Of a stretch of DNA of 64,000 nt, positions 9,705 through 36,998 are shown in pieces. The notes below the pieces were generated by a model. The model made no database searches, had not been told where the DNA came from, and saw only the letters and a list, made by a program, of their open reading frames with translations. Within the stretch, counting starts at the first letter, position 1. Each line of letters starts with the position of its first letter. The translations under genes were made by a program, and so were the position numbers. Source of the DNA: a virus; IMG/VR virus record IMGVR_UViG_3300022391_000001, positions 41,470-105,469 of that record. One strand, 5' to 3'.

Positions 9705-9733
9705 ATCATAGAACCAGGCGCTGAAAAAGTCGA
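9705..9733 (-). promoter_or_regulatory. early promoter P4
   Basis: TCGACT-17 nt-TATGAT. Confidence 0.75.
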
Positions 9734-12454: not shown

Positions 12455-12463
12455 ATCAACCTC

Positions 12464-12742
12464 CTACAGTCCTTGCTTTTCAACCCACCAGAGCGTGACA
12501 GTGACTTCCTTGTCCGTCGCTTCCAACGTCTGGCTCTTGGGCACCCAAACCTTATCGCCCTCGATGATCAGGAGCGTCGCCTTGTCGGTCATGTGCTCGA
12601 TGCTCTCGTATGCCAACGTGACTGTTTCCGGATCAGCCTTGTCTTCATCCCAACCAACCATGTCCTCTGGATACCACTTCCGTGGCGGCGGCTTGTGCCC
12701 CTTCTTTGCGCCGCGCATCTTGGACATATCGGGCTTTGCCAT
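12464..12742 (-). CDS. hypothetical protein
   Basis: AGGAG RBS before MAKPDM; TDKATLL...WVPKSQ pattern. Confidence 0.65.
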   Translation of the reverse strand: MAKPDMSKMRGAKKGHKPPPRKWYPEDMVGWDEDKADPETVTLAYESIEHMTDKATLLIIEGDKVWVPKSQTLEATDKEVTVTLWWVEKQGL

Positions 12743-12743
12743 C

Positions 12744-13073
12744 TCACACGCTCCTGTGGATGCTGTTCTCCGTGGTGAATCCCGCCGGATATCGGCGGCG
12801 GAGCTTGTCGATATTCTCTGCGACGATATCAGCAAAGTGCAAGTTGCTTTGGCTGGCCAACTCTGCTGTGTACCACATGATGTCGCCAAGCTCCTTGGAT
12901 ACATAGTCTGGATCAAATGGATGACCGTGGTACAAGTGCTTTTTGAGGTGGTCCAGAAGCTCACCCACCTCACCGGCCAACCCCATCGAGGTGTTGGCCA
13001 GTAGCTCCCGCTTGTTCAGCTCCGGATTGCGGGTCCTGGATGCCAGCTCTTGATACTCGTTGAACTCCATCAT
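12744..13073 (-). CDS. MazG-like nucleoside triphosphate pyrophosphohydrolase
   Basis: YQELASRT, GLAGEVGE, KELGDIMWY, NIDKLRRRY. Confidence 0.9.
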   Translation of the reverse strand: MMEFNEYQELASRTRNPELNKRELLANTSMGLAGEVGELLDHLKKHLYHGHPFDPDYVSKELGDIMWYTAELASQSNLHFADIVAENIDKLRRRYPAGFTTENSIHRSV

Positions 13074-13849
13074 TTCTTGCCTTTCGCCAAACAACATTTC
13101 CTTGAACCGCACACGTCGCAGACGGGCTCGTCATGCGGCGTCGGCACCCCGTCCGGATTCTCAATCCACTCCCGGCTGAGCAGATTGATTGGATAGGTCT
13201 TGGTTGTGCGGTTGAACACCTGTATCTCTTTGGGGTGCAAGTCATCCATCCGGAGCTTCCCTGCCCGGAGCTGCACCTCAGTCCAGACCAATTGCGCGAC
13301 CACATAAGCGTCTGCGAGGTCTTCACTGGTTTGGGTGTTGACCTTGCCGGACTTGGCCGGCGGCGGATTGAGCGGCGAGAAGTCCGCGCCCCATCGCTCC
13401 TGCACCGCTCGCTCGATGGCATCCTTGTGGCAGGTCCCGTCGTGAGCGCCGAACATCTTGACCGTGGTCGGATCAGGAAGTCTGATCTTGAATCCCCGGA
13501 ACCAACACAAGATCCGAGCGATGCCGCCCGCTTCGCCCATCTGATGCGCCCCTTGCTCCGCCCGCAGAGCATAGTCCTCAATCCCCACATAGGCGGCATC
13601 GGTGCGCATCAACACCCTCTTGTCCAAGTAGTGCTCGATCCAAGCCAGTCGGATCATTCCCCGCACGTGCTTGTCCTTGCTCCGATCCATCTGCTGGATG
13701 GGCAACCGCTCCCCTCGTTTGGACCTTGCCGCCGCTCCGGCGATGTCGGTCCAATACCAGAAGTTGCTCAGCTCGCCATCGGTGAGCTCAACCGCCGCTC
13801 CGTGATTCAGTGCGATGTCCATCCCGAGCACTTTGGTTTGATCTCTCAT
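13070..13849 (-). CDS. RuvC-like Holliday junction resolvase
   Basis: VLGMDIA, IEDYA, PTTVKMF, DLADAY. Confidence 0.8.
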   Translation of the reverse strand: MRDQTKVLGMDIALNHGAAVELTDGELSNFWYWTDIAGAAARSKRGERLPIQQMDRSKDKHVRGMIRLAWIEHYLDKRVLMRTDAAYVGIEDYALRAEQGAHQMGEAGGIARILCWFRGFKIRLPDPTTVKMFGAHDGTCHKDAIERAVQERWGADFSPLNPPPAKSGKVNTQTSEDLADAYVVAQLVWTEVQLRAGKLRMDDLHPKEIQVFNRTTKTYPINLLSREWIENPDGVPTPHDEPVCDVCGSRKCCLAKGKK

Positions 13850-14541
13850 CGGTCCCACGCCGCGCTGTCCCATTTGTCTTCATCGTCATCGTCACCGGCG
13901 CTGGCTTTGGCCTCCATGATCTCCTTGGTCGCCTTTTTTCGCCACGACACATCGGGCTTGTATCGTTCCAGATAATTCAGAATGTGCCCAAGACGGATGT
14001 CAGCGTTGTCCCGCTCGGTGCGAGCGGCGTCCAGCTCCGATTCCAATTCTGTCACCCTGATGGCCGCGCCAGCGCTATCCTGGATGGCCTGTCTCAAGCT
14101 CTGCTCCACCACCGGCAACACCGCCATATGGACTGCTGCGTCTGTTGCCGACGGCGGCAACACCTCCGGCGGCGGCGGAGCTTCCGGTGTCTTGGGCGGC
14201 GTGGAGGGCTCGTGAACTGCCCTGCCCATCAGAGTCCCGGTGACTGCTGTGTCGCTCATTTGCAGTTCCAAACCGCCCTGCTCCAAAGCCAATCCCAACG
14301 CAGCCCAACAACGGCGCCACACTTCCAACCCCTTGTTCCAATTGAACGTGTGAATCCGCCCGTTGGTGGAGCGGCCAACCCCTCCGGCTCCGCCGGAGCC
14401 GTCGGAGTACACCGACTGAATCGCGTCAGTCAGCCCCTGCCACTCCCGTGGTTCCAGCGCTGGGCCCAACTGCTCGATGCTTATCCGCATATGGTCCGAG
14501 CCCTGTTCAGGGCTGGCAACCAATTGTCTAACTGTCATCAT
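13846..14541 (-). CDS. hypothetical protein with C-terminal coiled coil
   Basis: Tiles; start MMTVRQ. Confidence 0.65.
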   Translation of the reverse strand: MMTVRQLVASPEQGSDHMRISIEQLGPALEPREWQGLTDAIQSVYSDGSGGAGGVGRSTNGRIHTFNWNKGLEVWRRCWAALGLALEQGGLELQMSDTAVTGTLMGRAVHEPSTPPKTPEAPPPPEVLPPSATDAAVHMAVLPVVEQSLRQAIQDSAGAAIRVTELESELDAARTERDNADIRLGHILNYLERYKPDVSWRKKATKEIMEAKASAGDDDDEDKWDSAAWDR

Positions 14542-14719
14542 AATCCACCTTCGCTCCGCAATCAGAACAATAATATTCCACCCGTTGCGATGTCTCTTGA
14601 AGCTCCAAAGCCAATCGTTCCCCATCGGTCTCAATCTGGCTGCGCGTCCCGATGATGATCCGTTTCTCGGGCGGTTCAATCGTCCCACAGTGTTCACAAT
14701 ATGCCCATGGCTGACTCAC
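14528..14719 (-). CDS. small Zn-ribbon protein
   Basis: CEHC...CSDC; GGAGG RBS; GTGA overlap. Confidence 0.65.
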   Translation of the reverse strand: MSQPWAYCEHCGTIEPPEKRIIIGTRSQIETDGERLALELQETSQRVEYYCSDCGAKVDYDDS

Positions 14720-16674
14720 ATCCGCACCTCCAGTCTGCTGACGCCACCCTCCTTGGTTACCCACGCGGTGTGCTCGAACACCTCCCCAACCTCAGCTTCG
14801 TGGCTGATCACAAATATGGTGCCACGCTCCGCGCGCAAGGACTGAAGCAGCGTCAATACTCGTTGGCATCCCTCTGCGTCCAATCCGTCCAGCACTTCAT
14901 CGAGCATCAACAAATCTACATGGCCCCCTTCTCGGGTCGCCACGAGGTCCATCAGGGCCAAGTCGGTTGCAACCTCCATCTTTTTGAGCTGCCCACCGCT
15001 TGGCGGATAGTTATCCTCCAACCCCTCAACGTCCCACTGGATGTCGATCTCATCCCGATACTCGCCCTTGGCTGACTTGAGCTCCCGCTGGGTGGCGAAG
15101 CGCATTGTGATGTCGCCGTCGGCCAGCGTCTCCAAATAGTGGTTGGCCCGATCTGTTATGTAAGGCATCACTTCATCGAGGATGAACGATGACAACCCTT
15201 GGCCCGAGAAGCCCCGCACCCAAAACTCATGGTGGGCGAGGTCTTGAGACACCAGGACACTTTGCGAGCGGAGCTTCATCAGCTCCGCCTGGTATTCTTC
15301 AATCTTGGCCTTGGCGGTGGCCAGTGCCCCGTCAAAGGGATTCTCACACGCCATGATCCGCTTGATCTGCTCAACGTGCTCCTTGGCCATCGCAACGGCG
15401 TGCTTCGCTTCGCCGACGCGCCGTTGCTGCTCTTGCTCCAGGCGTTCCCGGCGCAAGCGAGCGGCGGAAATTCTCTGGTTGATCGCGTTCAGTCGGCGAA
15501 GGCATTCAGATGCTTCGGCGGCGGCGGAGCGATAGCGCTTGCGCATCTTCTGGATGGATGCCATAGCGTTGTGGTGGTTTTCTATCTGTTCTGTGCACTT
15601 CGCCGCCTTCACAGATGCCTCTTGGAGTGCTTCGGATAGCTCCCGGCGGTGCTCTTGGACGTGCTCCGAGGTCAACGGCGTACTACAGACCGGACACACC
15701 TCGCCATCGAGCGCTTCCAATGCTTCAGTCTTGGCCGCCACCGTCGCTCGATGCTGGGACTCCATCCTATGCGCCTTGTCCCGCCGACGCTCCAGCTCGT
15801 CCAGATCGAGGTCCAGCTTGTCTATCTGCTCTTCAGCTCCGTCGGATTCTGTGATCTTGGCTCTGAGCTCTTCAGCCTTGGCCTCCAGTGCGTCCGTGTC
15901 GGTTTCCTCTGTGTCCTCCGGCTGCCCCGCTAACAGCTCCTGCGCCTTTTGCTTCAGCCCCTGGACCTTGACCTTCAGCGAGTCAACCTGCCTTTCTCGG
16001 TCATTCTCCCACTCTTCTCGCTGTGACTCCAATTCATTGAGATCGTGCTCATCTATCCGCCACTGGTAGCCCTCCGCTGCCCTCTCAATCTCATCCAGAC
16101 TCCGCTTCAGCTCTGTGCGCTTCTCGCGCACACGCTCGTGACACTGCTTGAGGATGTCCGTGCGCAAGATCTTGTGCAACATTTCCTTGCGGTCGACATC
16201 CTTGGTCCGAGGGTCGGCGAAGCGTGCCGAATCGTTCTGGCCATACATCACCGTGTTCTTGAAGGCCAAGAAGTCCAGCCCCACCATCTCATTGATCTTG
16301 TGCTGCAGCGCGTCCCTGGAGCCCGAGAAGGGCTTGCCGTCGGGCTGAATCAGTTGGAGCTTGGGCGCACCCTTGGTCCGAGCCCGCTCCACCGTCCAGT
16401 ATTGCTCCGGCTGCTCGAACATCCGCACACGCACCGTTGCTCGGGTCGCCCCCCGACGGATCACCCGGTCGCCCGCTTCCCCGTCGATGGATTGGCCCCA
16501 CAGCCCCCATCCCAGAGCTTTGAGCAAGGTGGACTTGCCCGAGCCGTTGCTCTGGGATGACTCGGTGTCCAGATTGGTCCCGCCCAAGAATATCAACCCT
16601 TGGCGGTGCAGAGGCAGCGTGGCGGCGGCGAAGCTCCCGAAGTCAGTCAGCTGAACATCATACAGGTCCATCAT
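14716..16674 (-). CDS. SbcC/Rad50/gp46-like SMC ATPase
   Basis: Walker A NGSGKST, zinc hook CPVC, signature SGGQ, Walker B LMLDE, ISH. Confidence 0.93.
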   Translation of the reverse strand: MMDLYDVQLTDFGSFAAATLPLHRQGLIFLGGTNLDTESSQSNGSGKSTLLKALGWGLWGQSIDGEAGDRVIRRGATRATVRVRMFEQPEQYWTVERARTKGAPKLQLIQPDGKPFSGSRDALQHKINEMVGLDFLAFKNTVMYGQNDSARFADPRTKDVDRKEMLHKILRTDILKQCHERVREKRTELKRSLDEIERAAEGYQWRIDEHDLNELESQREEWENDRERQVDSLKVKVQGLKQKAQELLAGQPEDTEETDTDALEAKAEELRAKITESDGAEEQIDKLDLDLDELERRRDKAHRMESQHRATVAAKTEALEALDGEVCPVCSTPLTSEHVQEHRRELSEALQEASVKAAKCTEQIENHHNAMASIQKMRKRYRSAAAEASECLRRLNAINQRISAARLRRERLEQEQQRRVGEAKHAVAMAKEHVEQIKRIMACENPFDGALATAKAKIEEYQAELMKLRSQSVLVSQDLAHHEFWVRGFSGQGLSSFILDEVMPYITDRANHYLETLADGDITMRFATQRELKSAKGEYRDEIDIQWDVEGLEDNYPPSGGQLKKMEVATDLALMDLVATREGGHVDLLMLDEVLDGLDAEGCQRVLTLLQSLRAERGTIFVISHEAEVGEVFEHTAWVTKEGGVSRLEVRM

Positions 16675-17843
16675 CCACCCCTTGCAGCGGCCAGAGTCTC
16701 ACGCCCGATGCGCTTCAGCTCCCCAACATCGAGGTCCCCAGTCACCACCCCGGCAGCGTCCACGTATCGTGCGATGGCGGCGTCCAGCGTCGGCGCCGTC
16801 GCCATCTGCTTGCTGTCCGTGTCCCCTTCCAATCGGACCTTGTGGTGATAGATCGGCTTGTGCTTCGCCGATGCCTTGATCCCTGTCGATTGAAGAGCGT
16901 CGCAAATCGCCTTGACCTTGGGCTTCAACGTCGCCCAATCAGCGTTGGTACACGCAACCTCAAGACGCAGATAATCACCAGCTTCAATCTTGTTGGACTT
17001 GACGTATCCAGCTACAGTGGCAGGCTCAAACTTGTTGCCCATCCCCGTCGCCTTGTAGAAGCGGGGCATCTTGGGCTCGATGTACTGGCCCTCTGCTCCG
17101 CCCTGGTTGAACTCGATCAACCAATAGCCCGCTTCGCGGCCCACATCCCCGTAGTGGTGATGCATTGGCGCGCCGAGATACAGCCCTTGGGCGTCGGCGC
17201 CGAAGCGCTGGCGGTCGTGAAAGTGCCCGGAGTACACCTGATCGAAGCCCTCCGTCACCTCATCAGCTTCCAACCCGTCGTCACAGGTCCACTGGAGATG
17301 GGTGCACCCGAGGATGGAGTTGTGCATGAGCAGCACGTTATGCTGATCGGGGTCCAGTCGGGCTCGGATCTCCGCCAACCGCTCCCGAGTGTCCTCCACC
17401 GGCATGTACTCCACAGGCCAGAAGCGAAGCCACGTGTCAAACTCGAATGGTTCCCCGGTCTTGAACACCCGGATGTTGTCCCGGCGCATCCGGCCAAATG
17501 CCTCCACCGTGAAGCGTCCACCTCGGACGCTGTTGGCGTCGTGGTTCCCCGGCAGGATGTACACTGGCTGATCCAACGCGGTGACCGCTTCCACCGTGTG
17601 GGTCAGCGTCACGGCGTCGATCAGAGCCTTGTCGAATAAGTCCCCAAGGACAAACACCGCGTCCACATTGGAGGCGTCGGCGCAACGCTTCATCTCGTCC
17701 CAAAGGCGCAGCTGGTCCTCCAGCCTGTCGGTCATCCCGTTCTGAGTGGGCTTGGCGTAGGGCAGCCGGTTGGACATATGGATGTCTGCGACCATCAACG
17801 CCCTGAACACGGATGGGCTCAAGGAGCTGTCCCGCTTTGCCAT
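16671..17843 (-). CDS. SbcD/Mre11/gp47-like metallophosphoesterase nuclease
   Basis: ADIH, GDLFD, GNHD, GHFH; adjacent to the SMC ATPase. Confidence 0.93.
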   Translation of the reverse strand: MAKRDSSLSPSVFRALMVADIHMSNRLPYAKPTQNGMTDRLEDQLRLWDEMKRCADASNVDAVFVLGDLFDKALIDAVTLTHTVEAVTALDQPVYILPGNHDANSVRGGRFTVEAFGRMRRDNIRVFKTGEPFEFDTWLRFWPVEYMPVEDTRERLAEIRARLDPDQHNVLLMHNSILGCTHLQWTCDDGLEADEVTEGFDQVYSGHFHDRQRFGADAQGLYLGAPMHHHYGDVGREAGYWLIEFNQGGAEGQYIEPKMPRFYKATGMGNKFEPATVAGYVKSNKIEAGDYLRLEVACTNADWATLKPKVKAICDALQSTGIKASAKHKPIYHHKVRLEGDTDSKQMATAPTLDAAIARYVDAAGVVTGDLDVGELKRIGRETLAAARGG

Positions 17844-18916
17844 CGCTTGTACAGCTCCTTGTGTATGGCATCCCGCTTCTCGGTGTCCTTTTTCAGCGCC
17901 TTGGCGGCGGCAGGGAGCCCCTGGCCGCCCAATTTCTCGCCCTTGTATTCATAGGCGTTGCCCGCCTTTTTGATGATCCCGTCGGCCACGCCCTGGGCGA
18001 CCAGAGCTTGCTCCTGGTTGATCCCGTGACCATAGTCAATCAGCACTTCCGCCTTGCGAAACGGCGGCGCAATCTGATTCTTCTTGCATTCAACCACAAG
18101 TTTATTGGCCACCTTCTCGCCGTCGGAGTCCTTGTTGGTCGCCACACGCCGGACATCCAGGAGTAGGCTCGCATAGAATTTGGGCGCGTTGCCGCCGGCA
18201 GTCTCGGTGTCATTGCCAAACATCACCATCTTCTTTCGCACCTGGCTGATCCACAGAAGGGCCACATCTTCTTTGGACACCTTGGGCATGAGCTTCGGTA
18301 ACAGCTCCGAGTAGACTCGTGCCTGCGGCGCCATGTGCTTGTCCTCCCACTCGCCCTCATACTGCGCCTTGGTGATGGCCGCGTTCATCGAGTCCAACAC
18401 GATGAGGATTGGGATGCGTTCCCCGCCCTTGCGCAGCTCCGCCGCTCGCTCGATGACCCCTTCACACGTCGCAAACACCGACTCCAAGTGCGGCGGCTGG
18501 GCTAGCACCAATTGATCAATGTTCACCCCGATGGCCCGAGCGTAGTCAGGGTCCAGCTTGTACTCTTTGTCGATGTAGACTGCCACCCCTCCGAGCCGCT
18601 GCGTCTCAGCGACGATGTGCAGCGCAAGCGTGGTCTTGCCGGAGCCCTCCATGCCGTGGAGCAGCGTGAGACGGGAGCGTGGGATGCCGCCGCGTCCAAT
18701 GGCCGCGTCGATGGTCGCGCACTGTGTGGAGATGACGCCCCGGATCTTGATGGCTAGCCCATCGCTCCCGAGCAACATGGCGCTATCGTCGCCCAGCTTG
18801 GAGCGTATGCTATCCAGCACCCCGGTGGCGAAGTCTAGCTTGATGGCCGCTTCGCCGCCGGGTGCTTCTGGAGTCGCCACCGCCACCTGCTTCTTGGTGG
18901 CAGTCTTCTTTGGCAT
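17819..18916 (-). CDS. recA: RecA recombinase
   Basis: GGIPR, GMEGSGKTT, QAR, ISQVR, GGNAPKFYAS, KNQIAPPFR. Confidence 0.95.
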   Translation of the reverse strand: MPKKTATKKQVAVATPEAPGGEAAIKLDFATGVLDSIRSKLGDDSAMLLGSDGLAIKIRGVISTQCATIDAAIGRGGIPRSRLTLLHGMEGSGKTTLALHIVAETQRLGGVAVYIDKEYKLDPDYARAIGVNIDQLVLAQPPHLESVFATCEGVIERAAELRKGGERIPILIVLDSMNAAITKAQYEGEWEDKHMAPQARVYSELLPKLMPKVSKEDVALLWISQVRKKMVMFGNDTETAGGNAPKFYASLLLDVRRVATNKDSDGEKVANKLVVECKKNQIAPPFRKAEVLIDYGHGINQEQALVAQGVADGIIKKAGNAYEYKGEKLGGQGLPAAAKALKKDTEKRDAIHKELYKRWQSGTAP

Positions 18917-26128: not shown

Positions 26129-26716
26129 TTATTCGCCCAACCTTGATAGGACTGCGCGCGCCGCGTCGCCTTTGACCACGTTGGTGGTTGTGATATGGCA
26201 CTTTGGAACCGTGATGGAGCGCTCGAACATCAGCGTGAACAGCCGGTCCAGTGTTCTCCAATCGGCCTGCGATGGGAACCACCTCCCCTCGCAGCGCCGC
26301 TTACAAACGTCATAGGCGGCGGTCATCCAAACGTACAGCACATCGCCGCCCTGCTGTGTCATCAGCTCCTGCCAGAATCCCACCAATTTGCGGCTCGCAG
26401 ACAGGTCCTTGTAGTAACCATCCAGATGGTTGTGAAGCACACCATAGGCGACAGCGGAGGGCAGCGAGCGGTCCAATATGACGTTTGCTCGGAGGGTGCC
26501 TAGCAGGTCTGCCGTGAAAAGATCCTCGATGTGGCAGTTCAGAGGTATCCGGAAGTCATCCCTGAGCACTCGCTCCGCGTCGCCCTCGTGCCCCCAATGC
26601 AGATCGGAGTTGCCCCGCCTGAACGGCCGATACACCGGCCATTCAAGCCACTGCGACAGCTCCTGGGCACAAGATGACTTGCCAGTCCCGTTGAGCCCCT
26701 CCAATATGATGATCAC
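26129..26716 (-). CDS. dNMP kinase-like P-loop protein
   Basis: IIILEGLNGTGKS, ILDRS; GTGA overlap with the aminotransferase. Confidence 0.8.
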   Translation of the reverse strand: MIIILEGLNGTGKSSCAQELSQWLEWPVYRPFRRGNSDLHWGHEGDAERVLRDDFRIPLNCHIEDLFTADLLGTLRANVILDRSLPSAVAYGVLHNHLDGYYKDLSASRKLVGFWQELMTQQGGDVLYVWMTAAYDVCKRRCEGRWFPSQADWRTLDRLFTLMFERSITVPKCHITTTNVVKGDAARAVLSRLGE

Positions 26717-27990
26717 AGAGCCAACCCCTTGTGAACAGCATCCACCGCTGCCAATGCCCAAGCCAGATCATTCTCCGGGATGGTCAGCGGCGGTGTGAAT
26801 CGGATAGGCCCGAATTGCCGATGCGTGGCAAACAACAATCCGACTTCCCGCGCCCGATGGATGAACTGAAAACCGTCATATCCATAGGTGTGAAAGTCGG
26901 GCGTGAAGGCGTTGAGCATCCCGAAACCATCGACGCTGGCCACCCAATCATAGCCACCCAACACCGTCCGGATCATCTCCCCCCGTTTACGCACCATCGG
27001 CAAATTGGCATCCAACCATCTGAACATCTCCGCTGCCATGTGACAGACAAAGGGCGAGCCCCCGAAGGTGTTGAAGTGGACTCCTGGAGTGAACGCCTTG
27101 GCGACATCCTCCGACGCCAGCATACAGCTCATCGGGAAACCCATGGCCAAGCCCTTGGCCAGCGTCATGATGTCGGGCTTGACTCTGATCTTCGGGTGCT
27201 GCCACGTGGCGTGATAGCCCGCGCGTCCCGAGCCCGCTTGCACATCGTCATAGATGAGCAGGAAACTGTGCTGCTTGCGTATCCTGGCCAACTCTTGCCA
27301 GAATGCAGGCGGATATGTGTGCACAGTGTTGTTGCCCAAGACGGGTGCGAGAATGACGGCGGCGACTGTGTCCCAATCTGGCGCCTTGGGCTCGTGCTCG
27401 GCGCCGTCTGTAACCACCTGTTGGAGCACCAACTCATCTTCACGCCATCTAGGGTCCAGGACTCCGAAGCCAGCAGCGATGGGCCCAAACCCGTGGCGGT
27501 GATATGGACTGACTCGGAAGTCCCCGGCGGCGAGACTCAGACCGGTGCGCCCATGGAAGTTGCCTTCCATCGTCAAGATGCGGCGCCGCTCTTCATGCCC
27601 CCGGTCCCACCAATACTTGCGCGCAATCTTGATGGCTGCCTCGTTGGCTTCAGTCCCGCTGTTGGAAAAGAAGATCCTGTCCATCTCCGTGCGCTGGCAA
27701 ATCAGCTCCGCCGCTTCCCAGCGCGTTGGATTGGGATAGATGTCAGGGAGCTGGTGCGGAGCCCCGGTGCCAAAGAATTTGAACACCGCCTGAAGAACCT
27801 CCGGCGTGTTGTAGCCCAGCGCGCAGACACCCTCATCCCCCCAGAAATCCAAAAGGCGTTGTTGCTTCTCAACATCCTTGACGGCACTTCCGGCTGCCGA
27901 TTCAACCGTTATCGGCAGCCGTACCACGTTGTTCATCAGACGGCCGTTGTACTTCTCGGTGTTGACCGTCGTGTCCTCATTCTGGTTCAT
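26713..27990 (-). CDS. class III PLP-dependent aminotransferase (ArgD-like, divergent)
   Basis: FSNSGTEANEAAIK, FHGRT, DDVQAGSGR, DIMTLAKG, NTFGG, RFTPPL. Confidence 0.92.
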   Translation of the reverse strand: MNQNEDTTVNTEKYNGRLMNNVVRLPITVESAAGSAVKDVEKQQRLLDFWGDEGVCALGYNTPEVLQAVFKFFGTGAPHQLPDIYPNPTRWEAAELICQRTEMDRIFFSNSGTEANEAAIKIARKYWWDRGHEERRRILTMEGNFHGRTGLSLAAGDFRVSPYHRHGFGPIAAGFGVLDPRWREDELVLQQVVTDGAEHEPKAPDWDTVAAVILAPVLGNNTVHTYPPAFWQELARIRKQHSFLLIYDDVQAGSGRAGYHATWQHPKIRVKPDIMTLAKGLAMGFPMSCMLASEDVAKAFTPGVHFNTFGGSPFVCHMAAEMFRWLDANLPMVRKRGEMIRTVLGGYDWVASVDGFGMLNAFTPDFHTYGYDGFQFIHRAREVGLLFATHRQFGPIRFTPPLTIPENDLAWALAAVDAVHKGLAL

Positions 27991-28946
27991 CGGCCATCCT
28001 TTCTGGTGCCTGTCCAAGGATCCCTGCCCCAGAAGCGTTCATATTGCGTCGCACGCTCCATCATCTCCGCCTTCATCGGCACGTCCACGTTGCCCAATGC
28101 CAAGGGCAAGGGCTCCGTCGTCCATTCGCGGTTGAGATGGAGCGGACACGGTGGCAGCTTGTCGTCCCCGGTCAACCGGCGGCGGCATTCTTCTTTGTAC
28201 ACGCATCCCATGAAGTCATCTCCCGACATGCACGGCGGTGAGACCATCTCCCGGAATATGGGGTGAATCTTCTCGGCGCACTCGTTGATCATCCCCTCGA
28301 TGATGGGCCCCCAAATTCCAAGCTGCAAAATCCAACATCCCCGCTTGCCCACGATGTGCTGCAGCGCTGAGATGTTCAGCTTCCAGCTGATCCGGTGTTG
28401 CGCCCCCAACGGTATCAGCTCCCGAGCATCCTCCATCGGTATCCCTGCCGCCACCAGCGCGTTGTATCCCGCCTGAATCCGCTCCATTGTCGCCCTGTAC
28501 AAGTCAATGAGCGTGCTATCCGGATGTTGCTGAATTGTCAAGGGCAGCCGGTATGCCTCATTGGTGGCAAAGCTCCCCATGTCCTGGATGCGCATCGACT
28601 GAGACCACCATGAACTCTTGGCCAAATCAGGTATCTCATCCATCACTATGTCGGCGCCCACTCGCTCCGGCGAAGGGAGCGTGCCGATCCGATGGCGCAC
28701 CGCCTGCTCCCGCCAAGATACAGAGACACCCTCCAGCATGAACACGAGGTCCACGTGCTCGCCGATCGGGATGCGCTGGGCTATCACCGCCCTGAAGAGC
28801 TTTTCAATCTCTTCAGGGGCCACGTCCCGCTTGATCTCCGCCGGAGTCCGAAGCGGCTCCTCAGTCTTGCTGGCCTCCCACACGCTGTACACCAGCTCCA
28901 AAGGGTCCCGAGTCCAGGTCAGCAGGGTCACTTCCGGTTCATTCAT
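27987..28946 (-). CDS. ThyX-family flavin-dependent thymidylate synthase-like protein (divergent)
   Basis: EH, QAVRHR, SQSMR, EDARELIP, KRGC. Confidence 0.8.
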   Translation of the reverse strand: MNEPEVTLLTWTRDPLELVYSVWEASKTEEPLRTPAEIKRDVAPEEIEKLFRAVIAQRIPIGEHVDLVFMLEGVSVSWREQAVRHRIGTLPSPERVGADIVMDEIPDLAKSSWWSQSMRIQDMGSFATNEAYRLPLTIQQHPDSTLIDLYRATMERIQAGYNALVAAGIPMEDARELIPLGAQHRISWKLNISALQHIVGKRGCWILQLGIWGPIIEGMINECAEKIHPIFREMVSPPCMSGDDFMGCVYKEECRRRLTGDDKLPPCPLHLNREWTTEPLPLALGNVDVPMKAEMMERATQYERFWGRDPWTGTRKDGR

Positions 28947-29716
28947 CGCACAATCTCCTTGAATTCTCTCACCACTTTAACAGGCACCTTGTCCTGCACT
29001 TCTTCAATCTCCAACGCCCCTTGCGGAGCCCCCCGCTGAAGCAAGAACATCGATGACATCCGATGCCACGTCACCACCATAAGTGTGCCAAAGTCGTATC
29101 GCTCCTTGTATTTCCGAGCCACCACCCGAAAGTAGTCAGGCCAGTGATCAGGGTGCATCCCGATGGACTTGTGGTATGACGCCCGGTTCTTGGGGAATCG
29201 GGACAATCCGAAAATGGCGCTGTCGGTGATCGTCACCCACTTCTTGGACGCCTTGAAGATGGCGTCAACCGCGTCCATGTAGCGCTTCTCGGTCAGAAAT
29301 CGGTTGAATGTGAGCTGATTGAAATCGGCGTGCACCCAATCCCAATACCGTTTGGGTTGTTCACCGATGAAAGCATAAGAGTCTGTGACCCTGGCGTTCA
29401 CGTCCGGAAGCGATCGCTTGATGGACATCACGCAATCCTTCTCGATGTCCAATGCCAGGTGCGCCCTTGGTTTGCACAGCTGCTGGATGATGGAAGCGTG
29501 CCAGCCGGAGCCGCCAAACAGTTCCACCACGCGCCCCACCTTGCCCACCTTCTCGGCCACCTTTTGGAATGCGGCTAGCTCCGCGTGAATCTCATGCCGG
29601 CGGATGGCGTAGTGCGAGTGCGGAGCGTCCTTGCCGATCAGCGCCCGCTCTTCATCGCTCGATGAATCGCACACATACATGCGTTGGCCGCCCAGATCAA
29701 TCTCGGTGATGTTCAT
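28943..29716 (-). CDS. class I SAM-dependent methyltransferase-like protein
   Basis: VVELFGGSG (motif I), ALDI, DS, WDWVHAD. Confidence 0.65.
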   Translation of the reverse strand: MNITEIDLGGQRMYVCDSSSDEERALIGKDAPHSHYAIRRHEIHAELAAFQKVAEKVGKVGRVVELFGGSGWHASIIQQLCKPRAHLALDIEKDCVMSIKRSLPDVNARVTDSYAFIGEQPKRYWDWVHADFNQLTFNRFLTEKRYMDAVDAIFKASKKWVTITDSAIFGLSRFPKNRASYHKSIGMHPDHWPDYFRVVARKYKERYDFGTLMVVTWHRMSSMFLLQRGAPQGALEIEEVQDKVPVKVVREFKEIVR

Positions 29717-30635
29717 CCCGGTTCCCTTCGATGGCTTCGGCGGCGCGTTTGACAATAGCAGGCCAATCAGACACCCGTTGAATCAGCCGCGTATCCTTCA
29801 ATTCCCTGTTGTATGGCCAATCCAATAACAGAACAGGCACACCTATGGACGCGACTTCCAGACAATGCTTCACCCGGTCCTCCACAAAGAAGGTTGGGCG
29901 CGCTGGAAAGATGTGCTCATAGATCAATTCTGCCTTGTCTTTCCCGAATAAAATCAAGTCATAGGCCATCCCGTGTTCTCTGAGCCAAAACATCGTATCG
30001 GCATACAGGTTCTTGTATTGCGCATATGGCCGTGCTGTCATCAACACGATCTTGAACCCGAGGTCCCGGATGGCTTGCGTTGCTTCAGAAGCCCCTCTTA
30101 TGGGCGGCAGCTCCCGGAATTGGCCACCCCTGTAGAAATCCTCCTTGAGCGATTCAAGCAGAGCGATGGTCCGATCGTTCATTGGGGCTCCGCCCTGGGC
30201 ACTGTTGAGTTTGTCTTGCCACTCGCTCAAATCGGCCAGGCAGTTGTCCACGTCGATGACAACCAAGCGGGTGGAAGTCTCCAGCGCCAAACGCTCCCCT
30301 CGGGCTCGATCATCGACCACCGCCGACTTCCGCATGAACGAGTCATACAGCCCGTCGGAGTCCACCCCGTACAGCTGCGCGATTGCAATCAGATACTTGA
30401 GCACATCGGCGGCTTCATCAGCCAAATTGACCTGCTCCACGGGTCTGCTCCGGAGCACATGCGCCTTGAAGTGCGTGGCGACCCGCATCAGCTCCGCTGC
30501 TTCTTCAAACATCCCCAAGGCCAAGTCCTTGGACACCCGAGCCCGGTCCATCGGCGACATCGCCGATGGGTCCAGGTTGAACGTCTCTTGCTGTCGCGCT
30601 TGGCGCTTGAACATCTCATCCCATCGGTCGGACAT
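29697..30635 (-). CDS. MazG-like pyrophosphatase / HAD 5'-nucleotidase fusion
   Basis: EEAAEL...DEAADVLKY, then IDVDNCLAD, TARP, FVED. Confidence 0.85.
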   Translation of the reverse strand: MSDRWDEMFKRQARQQETFNLDPSAMSPMDRARVSKDLALGMFEEAAELMRVATHFKAHVLRSRPVEQVNLADEAADVLKYLIAIAQLYGVDSDGLYDSFMRKSAVVDDRARGERLALETSTRLVVIDVDNCLADLSEWQDKLNSAQGGAPMNDRTIALLESLKEDFYRGGQFRELPPIRGASEATQAIRDLGFKIVLMTARPYAQYKNLYADTMFWLREHGMAYDLILFGKDKAELIYEHIFPARPTFFVEDRVKHCLEVASIGVPVLLLDWPYNRELKDTRLIQRVSDWPAIVKRAAEAIEGNRDEHHRD

Positions 30636-31593
30636 CGAACCATCTCTCAGCCAGGTCAATCGCATCCTCCAACACCACATCCATGGTGGAGCGTGAATTC
30701 CATGTCGCAAATCGGCCCAGCGGTGCTATGTTATTTGGCCACTCGGGCTCCACTTCCAACGGCAGCAGATGCCCCTTCAACCCCTCCGTCACTTGATCTA
30801 TGGCCCACCCATCCTGAAAGATGAAATTGAGGTCAGAGTGCATCCTCGGGACATCCAACTGGCCGTTGATCTCCACGGAGTAGCCGGAGCCCGACGGCGA
30901 GAAACGGTGAACGGCGTCGGCAGGGGTGTACGGTGTGTACACATAGTCCCATTGGACGTATCGGTCCCGCAGGGGATGGACCTGGATGACGTTCAGCTTC
31001 ATCGCAACGCCCTCCGGCACATAGAAGTCAGCCATCCGACGCACCGCCCACAACGGAATTGTGACCACGCAGTAGTCATAGGGCACTGACACCCCTGATG
31101 CGGTCTGCAACGCACCACCCCGGATCCCCGTCACCGCCGTCTTCATCACCATGAGCCCACCGGCCAATTTCGTGATCACCTCTGGGAAGTGAGCCCGGAT
31201 GGCCTTGCGGGGCTTGGCTGCCGCCGGATCATTCATCGCCGTCGCTGCGGACTCCGCGTCCGCTTCTGTGCGTCGCGTCTTGCGGTAGTGATCGGCTCGT
31301 ATCCGGGCTGCCTCGGAGCCCGGAAGCGAGTGCAAATATTTGGGATAGGGATGCACCCCGCCGCGAAGCATGATCCCGCCTGAAATCGCATAGTCGCTGT
31401 AGACCACCCCCAATTCATCAAACAGGTTGATCATCCCGATGGTGTGGTGAATGTATTTGAGCCCTCCGGCGAGAAATTCCCCGCCCAAGGCGCCCGACTC
31501 TATCACCAGAACCTCCGCTTGCAGTCGCCTGAACACATACGACGCGATCAGTCCAGACATACCACCGCCGATGAGAACCACGCGCGGTTTCAT
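30616..31593 (-). CDS. FAD-dependent oxidoreductase (protoporphyrinogen oxidase / Glf-like)
   Basis: LIGGGMSG, IE...LGG, YDYCVVTIPL, LGRFATW. Confidence 0.85.
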   Translation of the reverse strand: MKPRVVLIGGGMSGLIASYVFRRLQAEVLVIESGALGGEFLAGGLKYIHHTIGMINLFDELGVVYSDYAISGGIMLRGGVHPYPKYLHSLPGSEAARIRADHYRKTRRTEADAESAATAMNDPAAAKPRKAIRAHFPEVITKLAGGLMVMKTAVTGIRGGALQTASGVSVPYDYCVVTIPLWAVRRMADFYVPEGVAMKLNVIQVHPLRDRYVQWDYVYTPYTPADAVHRFSPSGSGYSVEINGQLDVPRMHSDLNFIFQDGWAIDQVTEGLKGHLLPLEVEPEWPNNIAPLGRFATWNSRSTMDVVLEDAIDLAERWFDVRPMG

Positions 31594-31618
31594 TGATTGC
31601 CCCAATTATTGTTGGATT

Positions 31619-31715
31619 AAAAGGCGGGTGACGCCGCTGATGGCCGGAAGTCAGCCATGAAAACCCACCATCGCGGCGCCACCCACGCCTCCACCGAGCC
31701 CCGGACAAGGAAAGC
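31619..31715 (-). ncRNA. candidate 3'-UTR antisense sRNA / terminator hairpin
   Basis: About 22-bp stem with G-U pairs only on the minus strand; 22-nt loop containing CAUGGCUGACUUCCG; followed by UUUU. Confidence 0.6.
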
Positions 31716-32588
31716 TCATACTGGTGGAGGCAACCAGTTTAGTCTACCCTCACGGATCATCCGCCCGTAAACCTGCGCCACAAACCTCGCTCCGTCCTTG
31801 TCGTGATCTGAGGCACGAGAAGTGAAGAAACCATCGACATGCGGGGCCAAGTGGAGCTGTTTGAGTTCAGCTTGAGAAACACCCTTCCACTCCGTCGCTC
31901 GGAGCGGTGTCAAGACATCTACCAGCCCAGTCCGTGGCTTGAAGAGAACCAACGCCAATGGCTGGTCCCGCCCGCTCGATGTTCTCACATAGATTGACAT
32001 GTATTTGCTCTTCTTGCGCCTATCCGATGTGTACAGCCGTCCCGGCAAGAGCGCTTGGGAGCCCTTGGGATACTTGTACGGGATCTGCTCCAGCAACGCC
32101 GCTCGGAAGTGCTCAAAAATCTTGTAACAGTCCAACCGGTTGCGGATCGACAACGCCACCAGCGCTTCCGTCGCCGCGCTCTGCGAACAATCGCGTGGCA
32201 GCCGCTTGTTCTTGCGTCGCCCCTTCGCGCTGCGAATCATGTGTTTGCGTGGTGTTACCTTGGACGGATCCCTCTTGGACAATCCGCCCCGGATGCCCCA
32301 ACGCCGGATGACCTTGTCCAGCTCTTTCATGAACTCGGTGGCATCCTGCTTGGCGATGGCGTAATGATCCTCCACTCCGTCCACCTCGCACAGCTGGATC
32401 TCCACCAAATCGTCCGTGGTCTTCTTGCTTTCCCTCAAATAGATCTGGAAGGCAGCACAGTGGTTCCGCCACAAACAAGGCTCGCTCTGATCCGGATCTT
32501 CGTGCTCCGGTTCCCCGTCACAGGTCTCATCCCCACGCTCGTATTGCCCCACGCAGGGTGGCATGTATTTGTTGGCATCGTCGCTCAT
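31716..32588 (-). CDS. hypothetical protein (N-terminal Cys cluster)
   Basis: AAGGAGG RBS; ATGA overlap with the sigma gene; C..C..C..C motif. Confidence 0.75.
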   Translation of the reverse strand: MSDDANKYMPPCVGQYERGDETCDGEPEHEDPDQSEPCLWRNHCAAFQIYLRESKKTTDDLVEIQLCEVDGVEDHYAIAKQDATEFMKELDKVIRRWGIRGGLSKRDPSKVTPRKHMIRSAKGRRKNKRLPRDCSQSAATEALVALSIRNRLDCYKIFEHFRAALLEQIPYKYPKGSQALLPGRLYTSDRRKKSKYMSIYVRTSSGRDQPLALVLFKPRTGLVDVLTPLRATEWKGVSQAELKQLHLAPHVDGFFTSRASDHDKDGARFVAQVYGRMIREGRLNWLPPPV

Positions 32589-33661
32589 TCTTGCCCCTCC
32601 TTGAGCCGCTTCACCAGGTCCCCATACCAACCTACAGGCACCTTTTCGCGTGCGCCGTCGGCACCGTAGACCACACCTAACAGCGCGTTGAATTTCCCCT
32701 CAAGCACCAATGTGCGGCGGAGCTTCCCCTTGCCCAAGACCAACACCACGCCCCACTCATAACGCTCGATCATCCGAGACCACTCACCGGCTGCCTGGAA
32801 GTGATCCGGCTCCGCCGCGTAGCCCGGAATTGGCCGAGGGTCCAATCCCCTCCGCTCGATCACCTCTGCCACAAACTCGTGATCGTGATAAGGGGCCTTG
32901 CTGATGTGAATCACCGGCCACCCCTTTTCTGCTACTGCCTCGCCAAACAATTCGCTGAATTCCGAGTCATACTTGGCCATTTTTGTGAACAACAAACGGA
33001 TTTTGTGCAAGCTCCAATCAACTGTGTTCTTGGTGACCCCTAAGTAGCGTGCGATGGCGATGCTGGGGACTTCCTTGCTCGCGTCGCCGCCGCTGTTCTT
33101 GATCATCTTCAGCAGCTCCACCGACGGATTGCATCGGGCTGTAAATACCTTCTTGTCCAACCCCGTCAAGGTGTTGAGCAGTCGGAGCTTCATCCGCTTC
33201 GCTTGCGCGTCCAACTCCGCCCAGCTACACACCACCTCGGGCGATTCATCCGACGCTGCCGGCTCATAGCCCCAACCGTCGCCGTCCCATGCGAGCATGT
33301 CATCGAGCGACAACAATGGAAGTGGACGCTTCACGGCGTTGCCGTCGGCGTCGGTCACGATCACAAAGGGAGTCCGACACTGCGCCAGCTCGTGATACAC
33401 CAGACCAAGGTAGGCATTGGTCAGGACGCGGCTGGCATAGGCCACCAAGCCGCCCTTCGCCTTGTTGTAGTCGTATCGCAACAGCGCGCCGAGAAGGGCC
33501 AACCGTCCCTCCTGGATGGCGTCGTCCACGCCGATGGACGGGAGCGAGCGGTGCAACGCCCGGCTCTTATGGAGGATGGCTGGATACACCCTCCGCTCGA
33601 TGTCGGGGTACATCTCCCGGAGCGCTTCAGGGCAGCGCCAGCCCTCTGGGAAGGTGGTCAC
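32585..33661 (-). CDS. phage RNA polymerase sigma factor (sigma70 family)
   Basis: Region 2 DAIQEGRLALLGALLRYD...LVAYA; LSLD; region 4 HTH IARYLGVTKNTVDWSLHKIR. Confidence 0.8.
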   Translation of the reverse strand: MTTFPEGWRCPEALREMYPDIERRVYPAILHKSRALHRSLPSIGVDDAIQEGRLALLGALLRYDYNKAKGGLVAYASRVLTNAYLGLVYHELAQCRTPFVIVTDADGNAVKRPLPLLSLDDMLAWDGDGWGYEPAASDESPEVVCSWAELDAQAKRMKLRLLNTLTGLDKKVFTARCNPSVELLKMIKNSGGDASKEVPSIAIARYLGVTKNTVDWSLHKIRLLFTKMAKYDSEFSELFGEAVAEKGWPVIHISKAPYHDHEFVAEVIERRGLDPRPIPGYAAEPDHFQAAGEWSRMIERYEWGVVLVLGKGKLRRTLVLEGKFNALLGVVYGADGAREKVPVGWYGDLVKRLKEGQE

Positions 33662-35631
33662 GCTGCCACTCCCTTCTTGCCCTTGAGCAACTGGCTCCGC
33701 ATCAGCTTGTACACTTCAACGGCCAATGCCTCAATGTCGTTCACGATGACATGGGTGGCGCCGTGCCGCTCGTTGTAGAAGTCCTGGACGGTCCTGGTCT
33801 GTGCGCCGATCCCAATCACCTCGATGCCCGAGCGTGTGATCTTCTGGATTGCTTCCTTGAGTGCCTTCTCGTTGGTATCTATCGCGACACCGCCGCCTGC
33901 CGGTTGGCCGTCAGAGAGCACGAACATGATCTTGCGTGTCTCGGAGCGCTTCGCCAGCCGCTCCGCGACCATCATCACCGCTTCACAGTCCACGTTGTCT
34001 TGGCGGCCCGTGATCGTCGTGAGACGGCTCCGCACCTTGCGGTAGGACTCGCTGAACGCCTTGAACATGTGGTATTCCATCGGTGCCATGCGGCTGTAGC
34101 CGTCCCGCTCGCAGCGGATACTGTCGCGAGTGCGAGTGTGGAAACCGATGATCTCAAATGGAATGTTCAGCGCGGCGAAAGTCTCACCCAGCGCCACTGC
34201 CATCAGCTTCGCCTGGTATGCTTTGGTGGTGTAGCTGTATCGGCTGTTGCCGTCGCCGTTGCCCATCGAGCCGCTGAGGTCGATGAGGATGCTGATCGCG
34301 GTGTCTAGCTTCTCGCCCTGCTCTTCAACCTGAAACACCGCCCGGTTGCCGGTGCGCACAGAAGCGAGCCTGGAGCTGTCCAACTCGCCGCTCCGCTGAT
34401 CGCCGATGAGCTTGGATGCCGCCCGAGCCCGAATGACGGTGGTGAGCTTGCCCTTCAGCCCTCGGATCTGCGCGGCCACCTTCTCTTTGATGACGTTGTA
34501 CTCCAGGTTGCTGTCGGCACGAGTGTGCGGGATAATCTGTGCATCCGCCGCTGCCGCTTGCGGGTGTGCGGAGTATCGGCGATTGCGGCTGCCGTCGGCG
34601 CGAGCGGCGTCAATCACTTGCTCCTTGGCCAGCTCCATGAGGTCGCCGTTGTCGGCGTCCTTGAGCATCGCTTGGCGGCCAGCTTCGGCGGCTGCTTCAC
34701 GGGCTGCCTCGTCACCTTCGCCACCGCTGTCCTCGGAAGCCCCTCCGCTGCCCGTCTCTGCGTCTTTGTCCTCGCCCTCATCCTCGCCCTTGGACTCGCC
34801 TGAATCCTGGTCTTCTGCGGCATCCTCGTCATCCTCGTCACCAGCGGCACTGGACTCGCCGTCTGCCTCGTCACCCTCGTCACCGGCGGAGCCGCTCTGC
34901 TCGCCCTGCTCACCCTCGGACTCGCCCTGCTGACCCTGCTCGCTCTGCGCTTGGTCGGCGTCTTGGCCCTGCTCGCCCTTCTGCTGCGGCTCGCCCTTCT
35001 GCTGCTCGGGCTGTTCCAGCTCTTCAGCCTTGTCGCCGATCTTCTTGATCGCGCTACGGGCCAGCGCCAGACTGTCGGAGCCCCAACGGGACTTCGGGCC
35101 AGCGGCGATCTCGTCAGCAACGGCGTCCATGTAGGGTGTGAACTCGGCAGGCATCCAGCTCGTGTCCAGGCCGTGCGCCGCGAAGATGATGCCGCACCCG
35201 AGGGTGTGCCAGAAATTCTTGGAGTGATCGGACTTCTGCTGATACTGCCGGACGCTGTTGAGGTTGGCGGCGGCCAAATTCTCCGCCATCCCCGGATACC
35301 TGGCGCTGTACTTGTGCTCAATCCGGATGTCCTCAAACACGTTGAGGAGCATCTTCTCACGATTGGTCCGGCACTTCCGGCAAAGCTGAAGCGGAGTGAT
35401 CTGCCCGGCGTCGGCGTGATCCCGCTCGTCAGCTACGTGCGCCGTCTCGTGGTCGAGAAGCCCGTGGAGAACCTTCTGATCGGCGTCCTTGAGGTGGTCG
35501 GCGTTGAACGGGTACTTGATCGTGTCGCCGTCGGTGCAGCACTCATATCCCGAGGGCACTACGTTGACCTGCCAATTGCGGCTCATCGCCCGAGCGATGT
35601 TCGTGAAAAGGGAGCTTCGGTCTGTGATCAT
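33658..35631 (-). CDS. CobT-like protein: metallopeptidase-like N-domain, acidic linker, vWA domain
   Basis: HETAH..EDIRIE; MIDAS DLSGS; LSDGQP; VIGIG. Confidence 0.88.
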   Translation of the reverse strand: MITDRSSLFTNIARAMSRNWQVNVVPSGYECCTDGDTIKYPFNADHLKDADQKVLHGLLDHETAHVADERDHADAGQITPLQLCRKCRTNREKMLLNVFEDIRIEHKYSARYPGMAENLAAANLNSVRQYQQKSDHSKNFWHTLGCGIIFAAHGLDTSWMPAEFTPYMDAVADEIAAGPKSRWGSDSLALARSAIKKIGDKAEELEQPEQQKGEPQQKGEQGQDADQAQSEQGQQGESEGEQGEQSGSAGDEGDEADGESSAAGDEDDEDAAEDQDSGESKGEDEGEDKDAETGSGGASEDSGGEGDEAAREAAAEAGRQAMLKDADNGDLMELAKEQVIDAARADGSRNRRYSAHPQAAAADAQIIPHTRADSNLEYNVIKEKVAAQIRGLKGKLTTVIRARAASKLIGDQRSGELDSSRLASVRTGNRAVFQVEEQGEKLDTAISILIDLSGSMGNGDGNSRYSYTTKAYQAKLMAVALGETFAALNIPFEIIGFHTRTRDSIRCERDGYSRMAPMEYHMFKAFSESYRKVRSRLTTITGRQDNVDCEAVMMVAERLAKRSETRKIMFVLSDGQPAGGGVAIDTNEKALKEAIQKITRSGIEVIGIGAQTRTVQDFYNERHGATHVIVNDIEALAVEVYKLMRSQLLKGKKGVAA

Positions 35632-35666
35632 GGCTGACTTCCTTGCTTGTCCTTGTCCTATTCCCT

Positions 35667-35695
35667 AGCATAATTGATGCGTGTTCAGAAGTCGA
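35667..35695 (-). promoter_or_regulatory. early promoter P5
   Basis: TCGACT-17 nt-TATGCT. Confidence 0.7.
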
Positions 35696-35733: not shown

Positions 35734-36909
35734 TCATGCAACATCGCCACCGAAATAGCGCTGAATCAGGTTATCCACGAATTTGGCGTCATCAGCTGAC
35801 AGCTTGTTGACGACGGTGATCTGCGCGGCGCGGCGGGCATCGCGCATCCGGACTGCCTTGCTAGCCCACGCGATCAGCCGGCGAGTGCTGAAGGTGCAGT
35901 AGCACATCTCGTTGGCAAGGGCTTCTCGGACCTTGGATGCGATGGTGACCATCTTCTCTGCGATGGCCCGATTCACGCGGGTGCGATTCATCAGGATCTC
36001 AACCTCTGTCTCCTTGGCGGGATAGTTTGCCTTGATGACCACGCCGAAGCGGTCCAGGGTTGCCTCGTTGATCACGTTGGTGCCGGCGTACAACCCGGTG
36101 TCGTCGCCGCGCCCGTTGGTGTTGTCGGTCGCCATGAAGCGGAAACTGGCGTGAGGCACGACCACTTCGCCGCCGTTGTCGGTGAGCACGAGCGGCTTGC
36201 CTTCCAGGACGGCTTGGAGCTTCATGAGGATGCCGGCCGGAGCGGCGGTGATCTCGTCAAGCAGGAGCCACCAGCCGTTGCGCATCGCTTGGGGCAGGAG
36301 CCCGTCGCGCCAAACGGTCGTGCCGTCGGCGGCGATCTCGTGGAAGCCCACAAACTCGGCAGTGGTAAAGCGCTGGTTGAGCTGGACTCGGACGCAAGGC
36401 TGGTTGAGCATCGCTGCCAGCTCTTCAACGAGCGTGGACTTGCCGCAGCCGGTTGGACCGTAGATGAACGCGGGGCTGTTCTCTTCAACGGCCAACCCCA
36501 ACTCCTCCAACATCTGCTCCTCAGTCTTGCCGACCATCCAGTTGGGATTGTGCTTCGGCACGTACACGCCGTCATCGGCTCCGAGGTCCCGGCGGATCTT
36601 GAGCTGGACGCAACCGAAGTGGAGGGTGTCGGGCGAAGCGACGGGCTTGGCTTCCTCAATCGGGTATCCCGTCGGCGACGTCACCGGCTTGGGCGCGGTG
36701 ACCTTGTTCTGACCGGATTTGGCGCGGTGACGCGCCGTCGCGCTGATTGTCGGAGCCCCGGGGAAGCGCTCGTTGTACTCTGCGACGTTGGTCTTGTGCG
36801 CGAAACCGAGGTGCGCGTCTAGGCGGTGATACCAACACTCGCACAACTTACATTGGATCTTCTCGGAGCCGTCTTTGTCGAAGCGCTCGTGCTTAGCGTC
36901 CTTGGCCAT
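35734..36909 (-). CDS. CobS/CbbQ/MoxR-type AAA+ ATPase with N-terminal Zn finger
   Basis: GPTGCGKS, LLDE, ATDNT.G.GD, EATLDRF, STRRL; C..C...H...H. Confidence 0.9.
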   Translation of the reverse strand: MAKDAKHERFDKDGSEKIQCKLCECWYHRLDAHLGFAHKTNVAEYNERFPGAPTISATARHRAKSGQNKVTAPKPVTSPTGYPIEEAKPVASPDTLHFGCVQLKIRRDLGADDGVYVPKHNPNWMVGKTEEQMLEELGLAVEENSPAFIYGPTGCGKSTLVEELAAMLNQPCVRVQLNQRFTTAEFVGFHEIAADGTTVWRDGLLPQAMRNGWWLLLDEITAAPAGILMKLQAVLEGKPLVLTDNGGEVVVPHASFRFMATDNTNGRGDDTGLYAGTNVINEATLDRFGVVIKANYPAKETEVEILMNRTRVNRAIAEKMVTIASKVREALANEMCYCTFSTRRLIAWASKAVRMRDARRAAQITVVNKLSADDAKFVDNLIQRYFGGDVA

Positions 36910-36969
36910 GGCTGACTTCCTTGTGCTAACTGTCTTGTTTTGTCCGGTTGCTCTTGTCCGTTATCTGAT

Positions 36970-36998
36970 AGCATAATTCCATCCATCGCAAAAGTCGA
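36970..36998 (-). promoter_or_regulatory. early promoter P6
   Basis: TCGACT-17 nt-TATGCT. Confidence 0.75.

Follow-up and report, generated by a model that had tools for sequence, protein, structure and literature searches.

What does a hairpin RNA do at the end of a phage operon when its loop is the reverse complement of the ribosome-binding sites at which that operon and a set of early genes begin? The question is raised by an IMG/VR phage genome of 105,469 bp with direct terminal repeats (G000 below), of which bases 41470-105469, a stretch of 64,000 nucleotides, were analysed and are referred to as the window. A sequence-only reading of this DNA, made before any database search, had proposed a phage-encoded RNA that occludes the start sites of early genes.

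Genomic context of the hairpin

Nearly all genes of the window are carried by the minus strand. The operon of interest runs, all on that strand, in the order AAA (CobS-like), vWA (CobT-like), sigma factor and hypothetical gene, followed by the hairpin and a FAD-dependent oxidoreductase-like gene:

35734-36909, minus strand: CobS/MoxR-like AAA+ ATPase gene, first of the operon (AAA_5, 2.7e-26; CbbQ_C; phrog_249)
33658-35631, minus strand: CobT-like vWA gene of the operon
32585-33661, minus strand: divergent sigma-70-family factor gene, third of the operon, assigned by profile against SigA structures
31716-32630, minus strand: conserved hypothetical gene (304 aa), last before the hairpin, with its stop codon at 31716-31718
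30616-31593, minus strand: FAD/NAD-binding oxidoreductase-like gene directly downstream of the hairpin, with its ATG at 31593; the synteny anchor for relatives

Database searches support the gene content that had been read from the letters, namely CobS-like, CobT-like, divergent sigma factor and hypothetical genes. The sigma-like gene matches SigA structures by profile (E 1.2e-7) and Sigma70_r2, the sigma-70 region 2 domain, is found in 11 of 13 homologues; the window protein on its own reaches only E 0.01 against Sigma70_r2. The hypothetical protein gave no family or structure match in searches. It shares with its homologues four invariant cysteines near the N terminus, in a zinc-ribbon-like arrangement, and is a candidate partner of the hairpin RNA or of the sigma factor. 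Downstream of the hairpin (26713-31593, minus strand) are nucleotide-metabolism genes: FAD oxidoreductase-like, NT5C/MazG-like, unknown, ThyX-like and class-III aminotransferase. No promoter of its own is visible between the hairpin and the first gene of this FAD operon, so the FAD operon must be read through the hairpin, which may therefore also act as an attenuator.

A private gene-start motif and its antisense copy

The hairpin loop holds the reverse complement of GGAAGTCAGCCATG, an SD-spacer-AUG motif that heads 7-9 genes. With at most one mismatch, GGRAGTCRGYCATG has nine matches where 0.35 are expected (25-fold enrichment); eight lie on the minus strand, and the sole plus-strand copy is the hairpin loop. 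Seven of the eight minus-strand copies are the SD, spacer and ATG of real genes (4955, 6573, 8499, 8718, 9672, 35629, and 36907). The claim that the loop is the reverse complement of a leader motif used elsewhere in the window is thus sound. The predicted target initiation regions (TIRs), with net interaction energies, are:

36907-36920, minus strand: TIR of the CobS-like AAA gene; exact 14-nt match; net -16.7 kcal/mol
35629-35642, minus strand: TIR of the CobT-like vWA gene; exact over 14 nt, 15 with the next A; net -17.0 kcal/mol
9672-9685, minus strand: TIR of an early gene, TGGAGTCAGCCATG, first gene after the promoter at 9704-9733; net -8.0 kcal/mol
8718-8731, minus strand: TIR with GGGAGTCGGTCATG; three differences from the loop complement, all G-U compatible; net -11.7 kcal/mol
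8499-8512, minus strand: TIR of a 238-aa early gene, GGGAGTCAGCCATG; net -12.9 kcal/mol
6573-6586, minus strand: TIR of a 323-aa early gene, first after the promoter at 6611-6640; net -9.5 kcal/mol
5427-5443, minus strand: weaker TIR, GGAGTCGACCATGAAGA, after the promoter at 5465-5494, in a leader that also carries GGACAAGGAAAG (5447-5458); net -7.0 kcal/mol
4955-4968, minus strand: TIR of a 191-aa gene, GGGAGTCAGCCATG; net -14.4 kcal/mol

On the minus-strand RNA the loop is the exact antisense (14/14) of the start regions of AAA and vWA, both in its own operon; a 14-bp helix within a closed loop of 21 nt is sterically unlikely, so an initial kissing contact, or the real pairing, may be shorter. 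The net energies (-7 to -17 kcal/mol) are the sum of the duplex energy and the opening energies of hairpin and target; this sum replaced RNAcofold, which is unsuited to pairing of a loop with a linear strand and returned trivial dimers only. No known family was found for the early target proteins.

The motif is linked to early promoters. The window has six early promoter cassettes (TCGACTT, spacer, TATGMTA), and after five of them the first gene bears the motif, as had been stated before. Two of the cassettes are:

36969-36998, minus strand: early promoter cassette (TCGACTT-N-TATGCTA) upstream of the AAA gene
35666-35695: second early promoter cassette

Beyond the window, a plus-strand promoter at genome position 29288 is followed by another weak relative of the motif. 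A further candidate at 14706-14719 (minus strand), GTGAGTCAGCCATG, has 11 nt in common with the motif and was rejected as a gene start, its ATG being followed by a stop after four codons; at this site a 652-aa gene adjoins the one that follows.

The coordinates given in the sequence-only reading all hold, with one correction: GGACAAGGAAAG lies at 5447-5458, not 5446-5457. The fully G-U-compatible deviation of the 8718 leader, at three positions, is also as that reading described it.

Structure of the hairpin

The element lies between the stop codon of the hypothetical gene and the FAD-oxidoreductase-like gene. It begins at that stop codon, on the same strand and with no promoter between, and has these parts:

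31688-31730, minus strand: small hairpin upstream of the main one and across the stop codon of the hypothetical gene; contains CUUUCCUUGUCC at 31703-31714
31623-31689, minus strand: main GC-rich stem-loop; arms 31623-31645 and 31667-31689, loop 31646-31666 (21 nt)
31646-31659, minus strand: anti-TIR core in the loop, RNA CAUGGCUGACUUCC, complementary to the SD, spacer and AUG of target genes
31619-31622, minus strand: U4 tract after the stem, a weak intrinsic-terminator tail

The minus-strand hairpin with its U4 tail, first noticed by eye, folds far better than shuffled sequence: the hairpin alone (68 nt) has a folding energy of -46.7 kcal/mol (z -5.7), and none of 200 shuffles folds equally well. 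For a 131-nt region the minus strand reaches -70.3 kcal/mol (z -5.9) and the plus strand -60.2 kcal/mol (z -5.0). The anti-TIR core sits in the apical loop, with a mean P(unpaired) of 0.54.

A second stretch of complementarity, of 12 nt, had been pointed out between the upstream hairpin and the 5427-5443 leader, and it is exact: CUUUCCUUGUCC (31703-31714) is the antisense of GGACAAGGAAAG, and this 12-mer occurs just twice, here as antisense and in the leader at 5447-5458. Its CUUGUCC core complements a GGACAAG box found in several leaders (the GGACAAG(GAAAG) leader box). The second antisense box is real in G000; no consistent equivalent site could be demonstrated in relatives.

Relatives and conservation of the element

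No relative was found among GenBank phages, either by DNA or by the FAD protein (50,697 phage records for the latter), and in IMG/VR nothing was matched by the exact promoter pattern or by the hypothetical protein alone. Metagenomes contain more than 190 homologues of the FAD-like protein, many of them on contigs of 90-110 kb; the phages that carry it are a large, wholly uncultured group. More than 20 syntenic loci were obtained from IMG/VR and JGI metagenomes. More than 15 uncultured relatives share the order AAA-vWA-sigma-hypothetical-FAD without exception, and at nearly all syntenic loci a large-loop hairpin lies just upstream of the FAD gene. Two loci (L008 and L009) are the same at the hairpin and were not counted as independent; L010 ends before the locus.

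Fifteen syntenic hairpins have z-scores of -4.2 to -6.7, stems of very different sequence, loops of 10-38 nt and an anti-TIR sequence in the apical loop. After the stem most relatives have a tract of 4-7 U (judged by eye from the folds), G000 has U4 and G001 has none. Termination at the hairpin is therefore not universal, and given the short U4 tail in G000 itself a discrete terminated sRNA is not assured.

Two complete relatives, G008 (from L045) and G009 (from L047), have no hairpin, and neither shows a private gene-start tag. In G009 the sole high-copy gene-start candidate is a terminal tandem repeat; both ends of that genome (about 14-89 and 94367-94529) carry arrays of 18-21-nt tandem repeats that are GAAGCGGCCGAGGATGAGG-like. 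On a poorly resolved tree of the FAD protein the hairpin-less lineages are scattered among hairpin-bearing ones, G008 being sister to the motif-bearing G006 with 98/94 support; this scatter suggests that the hairpin has been lost repeatedly.

Loop and tag change together

Each lineage has its own gene-start tag, mirrored by its own loop, rather than the tag of G000. Tags were counted anchored on the SD; acidic coding repeats dominated plain k-mer counts around ATG. Five relatives read as follows:

G001 (105 kb, complete): tag GGAGAACCGGCCATG at 13 gene starts; one opposite-strand copy, which is the loop and reads ...GAGAACCGGCCAAG
G002 (107 kb, complete): tag GGAGAACGGACATG / GGAGAACGGACA at 11 gene starts; one opposite-strand copy, which is the loop
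G006 (104 kb): tag CCTGGAGATCAG; opposite-strand copy between the hypothetical and FAD genes (CCCGGAGATCAGC, one G-U)
G010 (114 kb): tag GGAGATCGAA, GGAGAT(T)CGAA, at about 15 gene starts; loop complement GGAGATCGAAG
G003 (77% complete): two gene starts; loop with one transversion mismatch to both

At five further loci (L034, L035, L041, L042, and L049) the loop is complementary over 10-13 nt to a gene start of the AAA operon; for three others (L027, L032, and L039) the short contigs available yielded no gene start that matched. When loops and tags of 10 lineages are compared all against all, the longest complementary run averages 11.4 nt within a lineage vs 7.4 nt between lineages, and the duplex energy -22.5 vs -15.6 kcal/mol. 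In 100,000 permutations the value observed on the diagonal was never reached; as the lineages are related, this test overstates their independence and should not be read as a literal probability. Tags are different at numerous positions, and loop and tag must therefore have changed jointly several times; independent changes could not be counted on the poorly resolved FAD tree. Covariation of loop and leader in related phages, named beforehand as a check of the idea, is thus found across 10 lineages and gives the core of that idea strong support.

Three relatives show further features. In L027 (5080-5150) the loops of the syntenic hairpin (UUGUGCAC, CUUUUA) carry no anti-SD and mismatch its vWA gene start; this hairpin may be a degenerate or retargeted version. 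In L046 (9880-9985; genome G006) the anti-tag GCUGAUCUCCGGG lies upstream of the big hairpin, overlapping the stop codon of the hypothetical gene, and within that hairpin an inner loop is complementary to the vWA leader over 13 nt, counting G-U pairs. In G010, the genome of L044, two more copies of GGAGATTCGAA lie on the opposite strand outside the syntenic hairpin (53577 and 20240), and may be extra anti-tag elements or chance. A separate observation comes from the early region of G002 (12150-18360 of the oriented copy), where a canonical TTGACT-N17-TATAAT promoter and a near-identical leader precede at least five tagged genes.

The covariation bears on whether the hairpin is just an ordinary intrinsic terminator or attenuator, with a loop sequence that has no function of its own. 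That explanation predicts what most relatives show, a GC-rich stem with a U tract behind it, at a site between two operons. Terminator loops are usually 3-8 nt long, however, and those found here are 10-38 nt; a consensus terminator scan that allowed loops of 3-8 nt did not report the whole hairpin. In addition, the loop covaries with each lineage's own motif and its exact 14-mer match is not expected by chance, which together make a functionless loop extremely improbable.

A second alternative accepts the pairing and confines it to the operon. The loop would contact the AAA and vWA starts of its own mRNA (a 5'-3' contact) and tune translation or stability of that transcript, the other tags having another reason. 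It is true that no matches are better or more widely conserved than those to the AAA and vWA starts of this operon, that several relatives show just these targets in the DNA available, and that G001 is without a terminator tail. Yet complete G000, G001, G002, G006, and G010 carry the tag at 7-16 gene starts in other transcription units, with wobble-compatible variants, and action in cis only is accordingly considered unlikely.

Which strand acts

The differences between loop complement and gene starts are informative about strand, as a G-U pair is tolerated in one direction of change and a mismatch results in the other. Among gene starts with at most two mismatches to the loop complement, filtered for start codons, 12 types of transition are wobble-compatible and 2 break pairing (binomial p=0.0065); by instances, 24 are G-U compatible vs 4 incompatible. 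This count replaced a looser one with three mismatches, which was noisy. The G000 loop has U or G at all three positions where its targets vary; at position 3 it has the partner of the minority A, a U that can pair with A as well as with G. Equal transitions both ways would be predicted for a DNA site, a decoy or an open reading frame, and the bias favours pairing of loop and tag as same-strand RNA.

The same count weighs against a double-stranded DNA site, that is, an operator for a DNA-binding protein such as the phage sigma factor or a repressor, of which the inverted copy at the end of the operon would be one more example. Such a site predicts identical sequence on either strand, and a sigma-like gene does lie within the operon. 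But the spacing of the motif is fixed to start codons and not to promoters, every inverted copy lies between GC-rich inverted repeats, which would be meaningless in duplex DNA, and a 12 vs 2 bias to G-U-compatible transitions is not expected of an operator, making this explanation very unlikely.

A product of the opposite strand could take two forms: the plus-strand ORF 31657-31770 (37 aa), with the motif as its RBS, or an antisense transcript whose mimic of a ribosome site titrates a motif-binding factor. The loop complement does have SD, spacer and ATG in G000 and L030. At the start position, however, G001, L028/L043, L031, and L032 have AAG, and L034, L035, G002, and G006 have other non-start triplets. 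Expression of this ORF had been named in advance as evidence against an antisense RNA; the ORF is not conserved, most relatives having AAG or no start codon, and it overlaps a conserved gene at that gene's end. The plus strand near the hairpin yielded no promoter-like site, sigma-70-like sites included, and the wobble bias favours the gene strand. An opposite-strand product is thus highly improbable.

Comparison with known systems

Rfam holds no family to which the element belongs by these scans: cmscan of the whole window at the gathering threshold gave 0 matches, a scan of 31450-31850 at E<=10 gave chance-level hits only (the best, AS-traI, at 18 bits vs a cutoff of 99), and the hairpin does not match the C4 covariance model. 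The design, in which the sequence-only reading recognised no described phage circuit, nevertheless has precedents: the c4 RNA of phages P1/P7, the cuckoo/CcsR RNAs and RNAIII also use anti-RBS sequences displayed in loops.

In the P1/P7 c4 antisense repressor RNA, complementary loops pair around the RBS of a phage mRNA and block its translation (Citron & Schuster 1990, summarised in PMC12197685). The present hairpin is, by sequence, likewise complementary in its loop to the RBS region of phage mRNA, and like c4 it is phage-encoded and lies in the same transcription unit as a target. In contrast, c4 has one target (icd/ant), serves the immunity of a temperate phage and lies upstream of its target (PMC12197685), whereas the hairpin is of terminator type, lies at the 3' end of an operon and matches 7-16 privately tagged gene starts.

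The Cuckoo/CcsR1-4 sRNAs of Alphaproteobacteria are 3'UTR-derived hairpins with variable stems and an anti-SD in the loop (PMC4615179, PMC8034643), and resemble the phage hairpin in both stem and loop. They present an invariant CCUCCUCCC in two to four adjacent hairpins and have host mRNA targets (PMC4615179, PMC8034643), whereas the phage element is one main hairpin whose lineage-specific loop co-evolves with the phage's own gene starts; CUCC or CUUCC alone is common among its loops.

The C-rich hairpin loops 7, 13, and 14 of Staphylococcus aureus RNAIII contact the SD of several mRNAs, block the initiation complex and recruit RNase III (PMC2837412). RNAIII, by contrast, belongs to host quorum sensing and uses a generic UCCC seed, without a private extended tag or a link to a phage operon terminator. 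The T4 translational repressor RegA and endoribonuclease RegB act on initiation regions (GGAG) of many early mRNAs and shut them down after the early phase (PMC3014915, PMC1702504). They follow the same logic and are analogues in function, but as proteins, whereas the phage hairpin would recognise its targets by base pairing of an RNA loop. New here are the extended, lineage-specific tag that co-evolves with its reader, the placement of the reader in a terminator-type loop, and a multi-gene phage regulon.

Proposed role of the hairpin

The explanation favoured here, and in our judgement the probable one, is that a conserved 3'-end hairpin pairs through its loop with private gene starts and lowers their translation, giving negative feedback and damping of the early regulon. 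The structure and position of the hairpin, its complementarity to gene starts, the covariation and the strand bias are direct observations on these genomes; from them we infer a stable RNA species, repression, action in trans and a possible early-to-late shut-off.

The hairpin would form the 3' end of the transcript of the CobS-like/CobT-like/sigma/hypothetical operon, which would stop in the stem-loop or run through it; in most relatives the hairpin also appears to have the shape of an intrinsic terminator. Its large loop would display the antisense of the private initiation motif (SD and spacer, with or without AUG) and could pair at the starts of AAA and vWA, in its own operon, and at those of the set of early genes. 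Such pairing would block 30S binding or invite RNase III, and less of the targets would be translated. Expression of the sigma-factor operon would let this stable 3' hairpin build up and exert negative feedback; the early regulon would thus be damped post-transcriptionally, in step with expression of the phage sigma factor.

A more far-reaching version can be entertained tentatively. A phage family would tag its CobS/CobT-like genes and early regulon, and one terminator-loop RNA, made together with the sigma factor, would read the tag; the result would be an orthogonal, RNA-only switch that times the early-to-middle transition, with tag and reader co-evolving like lock and key.

The sequence itself gives the target set, and compensatory changes occur naturally in more than 10 lineages, so the proposal is directly testable with synthetic pairs of leader and reporter, independently of the host. 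If it is true, the pairs of ribosome-site tag and RNA reader would be orthogonal and useful as synthetic-biology parts, and within each genome the pairing would explain why the spacer between SD and AUG is conserved.
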